Shown in pieces: positions 1,846 to 7,102 of a stretch of 64,000 nt of DNA. The DNA is taken from assembly GCF_058153355.1 (NCBI RefSeq), contig NZ_CM177019.1; one strand, given 5' to 3'. A program made the translations under genes and the position numbers. A model generated the notes under the pieces. It was not told the DNA's origin, searched no databases, and worked only from the letters and a program-made list of their open reading frames with translations. Positions within the stretch are counted from its first letter, which is position 1. The number at the start of each line of letters is the position of its first letter.

Positions 1846-2179
1846 TAGTTAACCTCCATGAAAAAATTGGTTTCTTGCATCCTGCATAAGCAATAGAAAT
1901 AGTGGCTATTCATATTTATGTGTCATTAATGCTATAGGAGTTTACATTCGACATATCTATGGTTGTGTTCACTAATTTATCTTAGGAATTCAGTGATGTA
2001 ATCTGAAATAGCCTTATTCAATTTTGATAAAATAGATTGTTCTCTAACGCGTTGAAAAATAATAATTTATAGTGTGTTCTTAACTGTTTTAAGATGTTGA
2101 TTTAAGAAAACATAAGAGAAGCCGGTCATAGTGGTTAACTGCACTATAACCAGCAATTTTAACCAAATGATTGTAATGC

Positions 2180-2671
2180 TTAGCCATTATCTTCTGAATT
2201 ATCAGTTAAGAGTTCAATATATGCCTGCGCTTTGCTCTTAACACTTTCATCCTCACAATTGTTAATAATATGATAGAAACATTGCATTGCGTTATCGATA
2301 TTTTTAGCCCCAATTTGACATTGACCCATACGATAAATAACTGAATAGTCATCATACGGGGAGTAATTGTAACTTAGTTTGTAAAGGTCATATGCTTGTT
2401 GATATTTCTTTTTTGACTGGCATACTGATGCAAAACCTTTTAGATATTCATGATTATCGAACGCATAAATGCACAGAAATTTATAATAAATTTCTGCGTC
2501 CGTTATATTACCTTTTTCATGGTAGTCGAATGCATATGCATATATTCTATCAAGGATATCAGGAGTCAATCCATGTAGTAATGCCAGATTTTCTCCTTGC
2601 GATAATGCGTGTTTTAGTTGACTTGCCCATTCATCACTGTTATTGAATATTTCAAGTGTATCTGTGCTCAT
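2180..2671 (-). CDS. ygeG: TPR-containing type III secretion class II chaperone-like protein (SicA/LcrH family), ETT2 remnant
   Basis: 163-aa ORF with TPR-like Y/F-rich repeats; position between ygeF-like and ygeH-like genes; AT-rich. Confidence 0.75.
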   Translation of the reverse strand: MSTDTLEIFNNSDEWASQLKHALSQGENLALLHGLTPDILDRIYAYAFDYHEKGNITDAEIYYKFLCIYAFDNHEYLKGFASVCQSKKKYQQAYDLYKLSYNYSPYDDYSVIYRMGQCQIGAKNIDNAMQCFYHIINNCEDESVKSKAQAYIELLTDNSEDNG

Positions 2672-2896
2672 AATATTCCTCTGTGATGTGTTTCGTGATG
2701 CTAAATTATTATTGATTGACTCATTAATTTTTAGTATTTATCTTTTTTGAATTATGAGTTTTAAGCTTGCATTGCTTATGGGTATATTGGTTCATTATTA
2801 GTAAAAATACTGACCACTATAAACCAATAATGTCATTAGTTGTTTTGCTAATATTCACCTTATTAGTTATCTTATTTACGATATTTCATAAATGCC

Positions 2897-3388
2897 TTAA
2901 TAAGCATGACCTTGATTCATATTATCAATTTCCATTTTTTCGATGAAAATTAAAAAGGGGATTTTTGCGAAGGGTAGTAAGTCGTCTGGTTTTTTTTCTT
3001 TATTATGTCTGATGACAAGGGGGGATAGTACGTCGGTGCATATAGTAGAGAATTTATTCAGGTCTAAATTATTCTCTATTTTGGCCAGTTTTATGAGTTC
3101 ATTTGTAGCCATACTCATTAAATCATCTGTTATCGGAAATTTATATATGCTCATAGCAGATAATATTGCTTGCTGAATTATTTCTTCAGAAATATCCGCT
3201 ATCTTTATTGACAAATCATGTGTTAGATATTTTCCTCCAAGAGATTCTTGTTCAATATAATTTAAACCAGACCTCATCGTAATTTTAACTGGATTCACGA
3301 ATTTCTCTTCATTTTTCTTATTTTTGTTCTCCTGATCAGGAACTAATGGTTGCAGTGGTAGGCTATTATTAATATTTCGTGGCTTCAT
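2897..3388 (-). CDS. ygeF: ETT2-associated hypothetical protein (ygeF-like)
   Basis: 163-aa ORF in AT-rich ETT2 remnant, syntenic position; no recognisable domain from sequence alone. Confidence 0.5.
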   Translation of the reverse strand: MKPRNINNSLPLQPLVPDQENKNKKNEEKFVNPVKITMRSGLNYIEQESLGGKYLTHDLSIKIADISEEIIQQAILSAMSIYKFPITDDLMSMATNELIKLAKIENNLDLNKFSTICTDVLSPLVIRHNKEKKPDDLLPFAKIPFLIFIEKMEIDNMNQGHAY

Positions 3389-3818
3389 TTTACATTTCTC
3401 TCATTTGATTAGAGCAAAATCCGAATTCGCAGCTTCTGATAATGTCAAATATCACCTTTTCTAATGCTTTATTCTATCAAAAATCGCTCATTTTTACTTT
3501 TTTTACCATAATGTTACTTAGTAGCATCGGCAATTTACATAACTTACATGTTGTTTTTTATATCCTGAAAAAACAGATAGATAGTGTGCACACTCGAAAT
3601 GATATTGGTAACATAAATAGCTTTGTTCGTGACAAACATCTCAAAAGATTTCCTTTTATTATTTTTGAAATTCATTTGATCAAGGTTATCACCTTATGGA
3701 GACGTTACGTAGAATGACTATATTTGTTATCGGCACATTAGGGGTATTAAATTTAGTATTGATGGAAGGTGATTATTGAACAGTAACATCGAGTCACGGT
3801 AAAAATGTGAGGTATATA

Positions 3819-4392: not shown

Positions 4393-4887
4393 TTACCTTG
4401 CACAATGCATGATTGCTCTGTTACCAATACTCAAAATAAAAGCATGCTTACCTTGCTTTAGTATATTATAGCTTACACTTTTTTCTGGAAAGACATAAAA
4501 ATCAGGAATAAGTTCTGCAAGTCTATCATCATCGACTTGATCCATGATCTCAAATTTATTAACTTTCTTTGATGTTAAATGGGCTGTGTCATAGTTTTCA
4601 ATCCATGTGTATTCAATATTTCGCCGTATTGATTTACTTTCTCTGTTACCTTGTTGCCAGGTTCCGCTCAACGCAACAGTTCCTGTTTTATTTTTTTGGT
4701 TATACATAAAGTCGATGGTAAGATTTGCTCGCCCCTTGTCATTAAAAATTACCCAATTTGCAGTGCATGTTTCATTATATATCATTTTTTCTGTAGTATA
4801 AGAGTAAACAATGAAGAGAATAAACCCACTGATAAAAATTAAAATAAATAATAAGTTTTTTTTATAATCAATCACGATTAACCTCAC
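4393..4887 (-). CDS. yqeJ: ETT2-associated protein with N-terminal signal/TM segment (yqeJ-like)
   Basis: 164-aa ORF with hydrophobic N-terminus; overlaps the upstream yqeI stop by 20 bp (operon-like). Confidence 0.6.
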   Translation of the reverse strand: MRLIVIDYKKNLLFILIFISGFILFIVYSYTTEKMIYNETCTANWVIFNDKGRANLTIDFMYNQKNKTGTVALSGTWQQGNRESKSIRRNIEYTWIENYDTAHLTSKKVNKFEIMDQVDDDRLAELIPDFYVFPEKSVSYNILKQGKHAFILSIGNRAIMHCAR

Positions 4888-5677
4888 GGTAAGACAGGGT
4901 TAAACAGCCTGCCACTTCATGTTGGTTATAGTTTTTATTGCATGCCATAACAATCATCCTTGGTGAGGATTTTGCAAGAGGGAAGTATAACCACGGATAT
5001 TTTTTACAGTTAATCCCCGAATCCAGTATCCGTGTCTTATATTTATCGAACTCTTTCAACCCATCAATTGTATCTTCTGTCACATTAAAATGGCAGCCAT
5101 TAATTTCCGCAACAGTCTTGTAATCCTTGAAGAATGGCTTCGGTTGATTATTATTCCATAGCCAATGTGCAGAATATACGCCTATAGCAAATATGCTCAA
5201 CATAATTAGATAACTTTTTATATGTTTGAGGATTTTGTTATTGAAATTGTTTGCGCTACCAATGCTCTCTTTGTACCCCGCATTACCTTTTACGGCAGGT
5301 GGGGTATTGTGTGTATGTGCGTCTGTTGAAGAGTTTATTGCATGATTTTGTATGTTAATGTCATTATGAATCTTGAATCCTCTTCTCGGCACGGTTGCAA
5401 TAAGCGAGTGGGTGGTATCACCAACAGCGCGAAATCCGCGTCTGATAATGGATATGTTCTGATATAACGTGTTAGTTGGCACACGCATACCTTCTTCTTC
5501 CCAGACTCTGGTGAAAAAATCTTGTTGTGCAACCACATCAGGAAAAGCTTCAAGTAGAAGTGATAAACAACGACTGGCTGGCGTTGTCAGAACGACGTTA
5601 AGATCGGCGTTATGTACCGATATTAATTTTCGGTGCTCAGGCCAGAACTCGATATTATCGTTAATAATCCAGTACAT
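4868..5677 (-). CDS. yqeI: ToxR/CadC-like membrane-anchored winged-helix transcriptional regulator (yqeI-like)
   Basis: 269-aa ORF with N-terminal OmpR/ToxR-type DNA-binding region followed by a hydrophobic TM segment (IMLSIFAIGVYSAHWLW). Confidence 0.75.
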   Translation of the reverse strand: MYWIINDNIEFWPEHRKLISVHNADLNVVLTTPASRCLSLLLEAFPDVVAQQDFFTRVWEEEGMRVPTNTLYQNISIIRRGFRAVGDTTHSLIATVPRRGFKIHNDINIQNHAINSSTDAHTHNTPPAVKGNAGYKESIGSANNFNNKILKHIKSYLIMLSIFAIGVYSAHWLWNNNQPKPFFKDYKTVAEINGCHFNVTEDTIDGLKEFDKYKTRILDSGINCKKYPWLYFPLAKSSPRMIVMACNKNYNQHEVAGCLTLSYREVNRD

Positions 5678-6010
5678 ACGTCAATAGACACTAAATCAAT
5701 CGAAATGGAAATCACATAGTTTGCTAAGTATATTGGTATTTACGGCATAAATATATATTAATTTTATATTTATCATAATGATTGAAATGAGGCTTTAATG
5801 TCGCAACGTAAAACTTTACGTAAATTAACATGATTAACATTTACGCCACTATTGTTTGTAAATTCATATTTCGTAATGCTTCTGAATTTTTCGTGTGATG
5901 GTTTTAAATACCATGTTGTTTACTCTTGGGGTTACTGCTTATTTATAAAATACGGGCATTTCAATAGATGCCCGTATAAGCAGAGTATGATTCTGGCAGA
6001 TTGTTGAGTA

Positions 6011-6643
6011 TCAATGTTGGACCGAATGTGAACGAATAAATAACTCGTTTATTTTACCACCCATTCTCTTTTCGATTCGTTGCTTGTACGCGTAGATGCT
6101 ACGGATATCCATATCCAGAACTTCAGCAATCTGATATGGATTATAACCAGAAACCATATACCCCATTATGGTGAATTCCATCTGAGTTAATGTGTTCCCT
6201 CTGGTAAATGATAAATAACGACCTATAAATAGTTGTCTGATCTTTTCATTGGCAACATCAAGACCATCATCATTATATATGACAGCAGATATTGCAGAGT
6301 TGTGTTTTCGCCAGTAGTTAGCTAACGATTGCATATTGCGGTCGCTGACTAAAACAATCCCCATTTCAGTACTTGCAAGATAGTCAATCCAGTCTTTTTC
6401 AAGGAATAGACGTAAAAAACTTACTGAAAAATCGACAAAAATATATCCGCTTAATCTCGCATTGTGGTTTTTTGTTAAGATACCTTCCACCACACCACGA
6501 TTAAAATATGAACTTTCTTCGGGCCACATACAAAAACACGAGTTTGCGCAATACTGCAAACGCGGTGACTCTTCTGGCATTATTTGGCAATGCATTGAGC
6601 AACTATTGCATGTAAGACTTTTATAACGACTACAAAGCCCCAT
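6011..6643 (-). CDS. yqeH: LuxR-family HTH transcriptional regulator (yqeH-like), ETT2-associated
   Basis: ORF 6011..6703 has a C-terminal LuxR/GerE-type HTH (…TQMEFTIMGYMVSGYNPYQIAEVLDMDIRSIYAYKQRI…); start chosen at internal Met to give ~210 aa. Confidence 0.7.
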   Translation of the reverse strand: MGLCSRYKSLTCNSCSMHCQIMPEESPRLQYCANSCFCMWPEESSYFNRGVVEGILTKNHNARLSGYIFVDFSVSFLRLFLEKDWIDYLASTEMGIVLVSDRNMQSLANYWRKHNSAISAVIYNDDGLDVANEKIRQLFIGRYLSFTRGNTLTQMEFTIMGYMVSGYNPYQIAEVLDMDIRSIYAYKQRIEKRMGGKINELFIRSHSVQH

Positions 6644-7102
6644 GTTAAGAACCTCCCTATCCGTATATAATTGCATAATTTCATTGGTTATTGATGATGT
6701 CAATACACCATGATTTTGTAATTTTGCTGGGAAAAATTGCGATTAATCTGTATTTGCTATAATTCTGAGTAAGGCATTTAAAAATGCATTTCTCGTTATC
6801 AAATATGATTATGTTTCACTGATTTAATCTTGCATGGTTGAGAACGGTCCAGATAACTATCTCATGGTATAAGAATATCTATATCGCAAATTGTTTTTGA
6901 ATGACCAGAAGATATCTTGCGAATCTAAGTTATGCATCTTAAATAGTCTTATTTAAGATGTTCAGATCTCTTTGTGTGTTTAACTAACTGATAATACAAG
7001 GATATGACGAGAGAAGTGATAGAGCGGAATAATAACAAATGAACATTATGAAAACTGGAATGGTTCAAAATTGTAGCAATTTTGAACCATTCACAACGGA
7101 TA

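Follow-up and report, generated by a model that had tools for sequence, protein, structure and literature searches.

The regulatory arm of the Escherichia coli ETT2 island beside an IS2-interrupted ygeH

The stretch of DNA analysed here, 64,000 nucleotides of contig NZ_CM177019.1 (RefSeq assembly GCF_058153355.1) and hereafter the window, carries an AT-rich block at positions 1846-7102. This block very probably represents the complete and conserved regulatory arm of ETT2, the second type III secretion system of E. coli, in an uncommon lineage in which the neighbouring gene ygeH is interrupted by the insertion sequence (IS) IS2. The order of the genes, yqeH-yqeI-yqeJ, yqeK and ygeF-ygeG-ygeH beside yqeG, agrees, gene for gene, with what RefSeq annotates in the loci that match best, and it is on this synteny and annotation of relatives that the block is assigned to ETT2, as in the original prediction made from these letters. 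All of the genes named in that prediction (yqeH, yqeI, yqeJ, yqeK, ygeF and ygeG) are present at full length and align without gaps to their annotated orthologues. They lie in reverse orientation to K-12.

The contrast in composition that had drawn attention to the block is real. The GC content is 0.331 for 1846-7102 and 0.507 for the flanking core at 8584-64000; in sliding windows it stays at 0.30-0.34 from about 750 to 7000 and then rises to about 0.50, and downstream of 8584 every other window of 5257 bp has a GC content of at least 0.400. The low-GC block begins at 741 and not at 1846, since the truncated ygeH is included in it (0.334 for about 740-7102). On the other side, the right edge of the variable island falls at about 6929: genomes that do not carry the block match only its last 174 bp (6929-7102). 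The flanking yqeG (7103-8332, minus strand), which lies outside the block, is a Ser/Thr-transporter-family gene (NCBIfam TIGR00814, E = 1e-153) of intermediate GC content (0.44). It is followed by yqeF, kduI, kduD and araE, and the remaining 55 kb are core chromosome in collinear order, from yqeF to ptsP and recC onwards. The block is horizontally acquired AT-rich DNA, with yqeG as its boundary on one side and ygeH::IS2 on the other.

A close counterpart already described is the ETT2 of O157:H7 Sakai, in which ECs3703-ECs3709 correspond to yqeH, yqeI, yqeJ, yqeK, ygeF, ygeG and ygeH on the same strands, in the same order and of equal length; over the block the DNA is about 96% identical, the GC content is low there too and the site beside yqeG is shared. 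Here, in contrast, ygeH is cut by IS2 at nucleotide 1105 and the remainder of the island lies beyond the window. The ETT2 remnant of K-12 also keeps the regulatory arm from yqeH to ygeH, with most of the apparatus genes deleted and an IS2 inside the island, and is a precedent for regulators outliving the apparatus. The pattern of K-12-type strains is nevertheless the opposite of that of the window: their ygeF is frameshifted, about 240 bp are gone between ygeF and yqeK, and ygeH is intact. The word "remnant" used in the original prediction does not suit a block that is complete.

The gene yqeI (4868-5677, minus strand) encodes a 269-residue transmembrane regulator of the ToxR/VtrA type, as judged from Pfam, the Protein Data Bank (PDB) and hydropathy. 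The Pfam domain Trans_reg_C covers residues 28-102 (E = 2.5e-9) and the DNA-binding domain of Vibrio cholerae ToxR (PDB 8b4b) is matched with E = 1.7e-7. A hydrophobic segment follows at about residues 155-174, the hydropathy maximum (1.59 in a 19-residue window) being at residues 149-167. The ToxR-like winged helix and this segment bear out the earlier description of YqeI as a ToxR/CadC-like membrane regulator. The predicted periplasmic C-terminal domain, with Cys246 and Cys258, agrees with the published description of the protein (PMC9214523). The adjoining yqeJ (4393-4875, minus strand) overlaps yqeI by 8 nt. According to hydropathy, cysteine positions and Pfam on its orthologues, it encodes a 160-residue single-pass membrane protein with a transmembrane segment at residues 4-29 and cysteines at positions 37 and 158; the Pfam family YqeJ_C (PF27292) is precomputed on identical or orthologous YqeJ proteins.

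By these predicted features YqeJ is the membrane sensor co-component of YqeI. Kinch et al. (2022) described YqeI/YqeJ as a co-component system like VtrA/VtrC and ToxR/ToxS and orthologous to MarT/FidL, with YqeJ modelled as a lipocalin-like, FidL-related protein and with the periplasmic domains of YqeI and YqeJ forming a complex when co-expressed (PMC9214523). The pair of the window resembles MarT/FidL of the Salmonella pathogenicity island SPI-3, GrvA/FidL of O157, VtrA/VtrC and ToxR/ToxS in associating a membrane regulator containing a ToxR-like winged helix with an overlapping partner gene. The partner is, as in those systems, a single-pass periplasmic protein with a conserved terminal cysteine pair (PMC9214523). 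A YqeJ profile compared with the PDB sequences returned only noise, and no sequence match to the solved VtrC or ToxS structures was detected.

The gene yqeH (6011-6643, minus strand) encodes a 210-residue EcpR/MatA-like regulator with a C-terminal GerE (LuxR-type) helix-turn-helix (HTH), assigned from Pfam and NCBIfam. The GerE domain passes marginally (23.7 bits for a gathering score of 23.5), the NCBIfam model of EcpR (NF047921) is matched over positions 3-179 of 180 with E = 1.7e-20 at 73.8 bits for a cut-off of 300, and the Pfam domain EcpR_N (PF27348) is precomputed on YqeH orthologues. No receiver or autoinducer-binding Pfam domain was found in YqeH, and no match among the PDB sequences. 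The description of YqeH as LuxR-type therefore holds for its predicted HTH only. The homology to EcpR/MatA, a LuxR-type protein that regulates the operon of the E. coli common pilus, extends over nearly the whole EcpR model including the GerE HTH. YqeH differs from it by an additional Cys-rich N-terminal segment and by the location of its gene, which is not beside a pilus operon. In this segment (residues 1-38, window 6530-6643), most of which lies upstream of the EcpR-homologous part, seven cysteines are found at positions 4, 12, 15, 19, 32, 36 and 38 in the pattern C-x7-C-x2-C-x3-C ... C-x3-C-x-C. Such an arrangement may represent a metal- or redox-sensing extension; no discussion of it was found in a YqeH paper.

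At the other end of the block, ygeG (2180-2671, minus strand) encodes a 163-residue acidic (pI 4.7) tetratricopeptide repeat (TPR) protein resembling class II chaperones of type III secretion systems (T3SS) by Pfam, NCBIfam and PDB comparisons. The Pfam domain TPR_3 is found with E = 2e-22 and Shigella IpgC (PDB 3ks2) is matched with E = 9e-32 over 138 residues (21-158). The NCBIfam models of SicA (NF011859, E = 4e-36) and LcrH_SycD (TIGR02552, E = 2e-22) score 124.6 and 79.2 bits, below their respective cut-offs of 184 and 104.8, so that the SicA/LcrH-like chaperone of the original prediction stands as a relative within the family. YgeG shares with IpgC (Shigella), SicA (Salmonella) and LcrH/SycD (Yersinia) a length of about 160 residues, an acidic character and TPR_3 repeats. 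Unlike theirs, its gene has no adjacent translocator genes of the sipB/ipaB type. Deletion of ygeG lowers transcription of espE3 in avian pathogenic E. coli (APEC) (PMC10463865).

The neighbouring ygeF (2897-3388, minus strand), identified from its open reading frame (ORF) and orthologues, is intact here and encodes a 163-residue orphan with no known domain, for which neither Pfam nor NCBIfam gave a match. A search of 1.84 billion representative proteins yielded 22 matches, which are short YgeF-like proteins of 51-100% identity, a 51%-identical orthologue included, with the exception of one marginal protein of 976 residues (E = 6e-4). Only E. coli YgeF variants were found among 5.8 billion proteins. 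YgeF is restricted to Escherichia, and no other gene of the block evolves as fast or under as little constraint. Its N-terminal motif LPLQPL does not vary. The PxLxxP chaperone-binding motif was searched for in YgeF and has no exact match there; LPLQPL shares only its 1-3-6 hydrophobic spacing, and any relation between the two would be speculation. Just downstream of ygeG, a consensus scan detected a terminator-like hairpin with a 13-bp stem and a T-rich tail (2121-2154, minus strand; a pattern match only), which suggests that ygeFG is transcribed as a unit apart from ygeH. This would fit the separate, H-NS-bound ygeH promoter described previously (PMC4210603).

The left end of the window is occupied by 740 bp of IS2 (1-740, minus strand), identified from the Pfam domain HTH_Tnp_1 (E = 3e-19) and from relatives in which the matching DNA is annotated 'IS3-like element IS2 family transposase'. 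The element continues past the left edge; its insC/orfA ORF lies at 284-694 and, read directly from the sequence, the terminus of its left inverted repeat, ...CCAGTCTA, ends at 740. The truncated ygeH (741-1845, minus strand), a gene of the HilA family recognized by NCBIfam, Pfam and BLAST, is broken after nucleotide 1105 of 1377 (codon 368 of 458). BLAST alignment to intact ygeH covers nucleotides 1-1105 only, and the window contains no copy of the 3' part. IS2 is oriented like ygeH, and the ORF continues for 15 codons into IS2 down to a stop at 691-693. The product still matches NF008870 with 850.8 bits (cut-off 800) at model positions 1-370 of 458, and Trans_reg_C is found at residues 28-101. 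The full-length form of 458 residues, which in the HilA family joins a winged helix to a C-terminal repeat region, is nevertheless lost, the last 88 model positions (90 codons) being replaced by 15 IS2-encoded residues. The original prediction counted three regulators in the block. Two DNA-binding proteins, YqeH and YqeI, are encoded within its coordinates; the third, the disrupted ygeH, lies just outside them.

The junction between ygeH and IS2 is not an assembly artefact, because two independent draft assemblies (Logan SRR8656992 and GCA_015332025.1), each 100% identical to the window over 14.1 kb, have contigs ending at exactly the same point. It was found in none of the complete E. coli genomes of the collection; genome matches reported as 100% covered were rejected as instances of it, being IS2 copies at other sites near ygeH. 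An exact-protein look-up retrieved no record of the YgeH-IS2 fusion product. Among guessed C-terminal fragments of YgeH, one of 50 residues is not on record and one of 42 residues occurs in 18 contigs, none of them from samples of this lineage. Five other independent insertions were found in ygeH, all in its 3' third and four of them within about 100 bp of each other: an IS2 at nucleotide 999, the end of an IS3-like element at about 1093, an IS1 at about 1114 and others at about 1082 and 1175. This cluster could be a hot spot or the trace of recurrent selection against YgeH. A transposase insertion in ygeH has already been reported in APEC (PMC11068852).

The block is a typical member of the known ETT2 island: among 5426 complete E. 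coli genomes, 3540 carry at least 80% of it, about a third having no block, and 2991 carry at least 80% of the 7.5 kb apparatus segment next to it, so that about 84% of block carriers have both. The allele itself is uncommon, only 11 of 5393 matching genomes being at least 99% identical; across the block, the nearest complete genome reaches 99.6%. The YqeJ allele is rare in its exact form, and NCBI labels it Escherichia coli. A Shigella origin, entertained since the best E. coli identity is only about 99%, was rejected on the strength of this label.

Selection was estimated from pairwise dN/dS (the ratio of nonsynonymous to synonymous substitution rates) against six E. coli loci and a divergent metagenomic locus, L015. 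The values are 0.04-0.40 within E. coli and 0.22-0.47 against L015, and every gene stays well under 1. Constraint within the block is strongest on yqeH (0.05-0.25), on par with the core transporter gene yqeG, and the ranges are 0.11-0.23 for ygeG, 0.14-0.47 for ygeF, 0.04-0.26 for yqeK and 0.18-0.35 for yqeI. All seven ORFs are undamaged, and their evolution has been under purifying selection; none acts like a neutral pseudogene, one of the outcomes that the original prediction had named as its own refutation. L015 retains the gene order, with amino acid identities of 95% for YqeI, 94% for YqeJ, 85% for YgeG, 82% for YqeK and 51% for YgeF, which is C-terminally shortened there (2745-3143). Its divergence from the window (L015 1-4304 compared with window 1846-7102) is a mosaic, with dS of about 0.10 for yqeI and yqeJ and 0.30-0.74 for yqeK, ygeF and ygeG. 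This mosaic suggests a recombination breakpoint between yqeJ and yqeK.

Silencing of this region by H-NS/StpA, for which the original prediction had called for H-NS binding data, is already documented in K-12 and in enteroaggregative E. coli (EAEC) 042 (PMC12460168; PMC4210603). Its other proposed checks, comparative genomics of ETT2 and regulator mutants, are likewise largely covered by published work. H-NS binds the ygeH promoter, and the ETT2 operons need YgeH in EAEC 042 (PMC4210603). In K-12, ygeH is increased about 150-fold in a Δhns ΔstpA background, and the yqeG-ygeL fragment served as a model silenced substrate, the "chromosomal hairpin" (PMC12460168). The statement that the targets of these regulators are not known is partly outdated, as transcriptome or phenotype data on yqeH, yqeI and ygeG mutants of APEC have been published (PMC9014576; PMC7552227; PMC10463865). 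APEC deletion mutants of yqeH and of yqeI lose flagella and motility, and deletion of yqeH or ygeG lowers espE3 transcription (PMC9014576; PMC7552227; PMC10463865; PMC11068852).

A working model can be proposed on this basis. During ordinary growth the whole block would be silenced by H-NS/StpA filaments on its AT-rich DNA, by analogy with K-12 and EAEC 042. YqeI would be held in the inner membrane and bind DNA through its ToxR-like winged helix, its periplasmic domain pairing with a lipocalin-like YqeJ that, like the partners in VtrA/VtrC and ToxR/ToxS, probably detects a small hydrophobic ligand. YqeH, as an HTH regulator of the EcpR/MatA type, would control motility, biofilm and adhesion genes. 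YgeG would hold a client in its groove and, when free, may co-activate an AraC-type regulator, the likely partner being EivF, encoded outside the window. Chaperones of this kind that act as co-activators are known in the IpgC-MxiE and SicA-InvF pairs. Any ETT2 apparatus operons that remain are expected to be poorly activated, because the HilA-like YgeH is truncated and deprived of its last 90 residues.

According to the original prediction, regulators and chaperone occur without any secretion apparatus. Within the window no structural T3SS gene was indeed detected: ETT2 apparatus DNA taken from two relatives (7.8 kb and 11.8 kb) had no BLAST match in the whole 64 kb. As to the glyU tRNA boundary of ETT2, the window has no tRNA genes besides two tRNA-Met at 52.2 kb. 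The missing apparatus is, however, a window-edge effect, because the window ends inside IS2. In ten relatives, eight of them with an identical YgeF allele and two being the top-scoring matches of a search with the whole region, ygeH is followed by ygeI, an SLT-domain gene, ygeK, orgB/orgA, eprKJIH, etrA and epaS. The apparatus genes begin about 1.5 kb beyond ygeH, a position just past the window end. A simple insertion, with ETT2 continuing beyond IS2, is accordingly the probable situation. That an IS2-mediated deletion or rearrangement removed ygeI to eivF and left the true orphan remnant of the original prediction is unlikely, although it would account for 64 kb free of apparatus DNA, for a far side of IS2 that neither the fusion-product nor the YgeH-fragment look-ups recovered, and would have parallels in the roughly 550 of the 3540 block carriers without most of the adjacent apparatus segment and in K-12, a published case of attrition, with its IS2 inside ETT2 (PMC3977695; PMC9214523). 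With only 740 bp of IS2 inside the window, absence on the far side is not observable; moreover, all the identical-YgeF relatives and the nearest complete genome have the apparatus right after ygeH, and the five other examined insertions in ygeH are simple, with apparatus genes following in all five strains.

The same evidence bears on what maintains the block. That it is dead cargo, made of silenced and functionless ORFs drifting towards pseudogenes and intact only incidentally, appears improbable. Strong H-NS/StpA silencing in K-12 (PMC12460168), the ygeF frameshifted in K-12-type strains and truncated at 51% identity in L015, the repeated IS insertions in ygeH and the absence of the block from about a third of E. 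coli genomes would all be expected of such cargo. They are set against seven intact ORFs with dN/dS far below 1 throughout, a yqeH constrained like yqeG, ORFs and gene order that persist in a locus where dS reaches 0.74, and the phenotypes of yqeH, yqeI and ygeG deletions in APEC (PMC9014576; PMC7552227; PMC10463865). A role of the regulators mainly in other systems (flagella, fimbriae, the enterocyte effacement locus (LEE) or espE3) and not in ETT2 itself is a serious contender, if short of an even chance. The cross-talk published between ETT2 regulators and flagella, biofilm, LEE and espE3 (PMC11068852; PMC10463865; PMC9014576) points that way, as do the paralogy of YqeH with the pilus-operon regulator EcpR and the presence of the block in more genomes than the apparatus segment. 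Nothing in the window points to a target, and such cross-regulation overlaps with the reading of a complete, conserved regulatory arm instead of excluding it. A bolder reading, to which we give little credence, is that selection would maintain the regulatory arm as a module of its own, independently of the secretion machine, with YgeF as a client or partner of YgeG. The clustered ygeH insertions (IS1, IS2, IS3-like and others, spread over about 180 bp) would then show that selection has repeatedly favoured turning off the HilA-like activator and sparing YqeH, YqeI/YqeJ and YgeF/YgeG.

Several observations weigh against the reading of the block as a complete and conserved regulatory arm, or against parts of it. 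The left flank past IS2 lies outside the window, where the unlikely IS2-mediated loss of the apparatus would have taken place. Silencing and regulatory roles are transferred by analogy from K-12, EAEC 042 and APEC. The YgeH of O157 is reported as non-functional though full length (PMC4210603), so intact ORFs are no guarantee of activity. By their scores, YgeG is a relative and not an orthologue of SicA/LcrH, because it falls under both equivalog cut-offs, and YqeH is likewise a distant paralogue and not an orthologue of EcpR. No translocator-like ORF was found within 741-7102, the neighbours of ygeG being ygeF and ygeH. AlphaFold2 models built from six-sequence alignments were unusable both for YgeF (low confidence, pLDDT 48) and for YqeJ (mean pLDDT 52, strands predicted). 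The low-confidence YqeJ model gave nothing at E ≤ 0.001 in a Foldseek search of the PDB. The lipocalin fold of YqeJ is taken from the literature, since this model is poor and the fold search was empty.

The remaining features of the block are minor. The gene yqeK (3819-4244), on the plus strand and thus opposite to its neighbours, encodes a basic protein of 141 residues with annotated orthologues of the same length and no Pfam or NCBIfam family match. Downstream of it on the same strand, a 26-codon yqeL-like small ORF (MKDVDQNFDALYWHILQAYLILLFYD; 4280-4360) was read from the sequence; it was missing from the ORF list, and relatives annotate an 81-bp coding sequence at the same place. A hydrophobic ORF of 91 codons in the ygeF-yqeK spacer (3442-3717) is called by some gene callers, but K-12-type strains have lost about 240 bp of this spacer; it is probably not a gene. 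A perfect 16-bp hairpin after yqeG (7058-7092) was found by both terminator-pattern and repeat searches. This yqeG terminator hairpin is the only outcome of a repeat search of 700-8600, whose remaining pairs look like chance. An Rfam scan of 1-12000 at E ≤ 1 gave no RNA family, and promoter-like sites (39 seen, 37.7 expected from shuffles) are not enriched beyond composition. Elsewhere in the window, ptrA (pitrilysin, 35296-38219) contains a 35-bp tandem duplication in 2.3 copies (36733-36812) that splits it into two ORFs, 35296-36870 and 36870-38219. The duplication looks lineage-specific, since the affected stretch of 501 nt measures 466 nt in the best-matching complete E. coli genomes, and it appears to make ptrA a pseudogene. 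A second islet of lower GC content (0.35-0.44) lies at 46833-52383 beside the two tRNA-Met genes (52197-52383), with five genes for a BglG-type antiterminator, a phosphotransferase system (PTS) EIICB component, an aminotransferase, a SIS-domain protein and a 2-hydroxyacid dehydrogenase.

Overall, ETT2 itself, its attrition, its silencing by H-NS/StpA, the YqeI/YqeJ pair and the phenotypes of yqeH, yqeI and ygeG mutants are all already published, and the useful outcome of the present analysis is a correction: the missing apparatus is an effect of the window edge, the block is complete and ygeH is cut by IS2. Small leads are the orphan YgeF beside a chaperone, the Cys-rich start of YqeH and the possible IS hot spot in ygeH. 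What is truly specific to this strain is the IS2 insertion that cuts the HilA-like master regulator gene ygeH, and it predicts that ETT2 would not be switchable on in this lineage, even with its genes still there.

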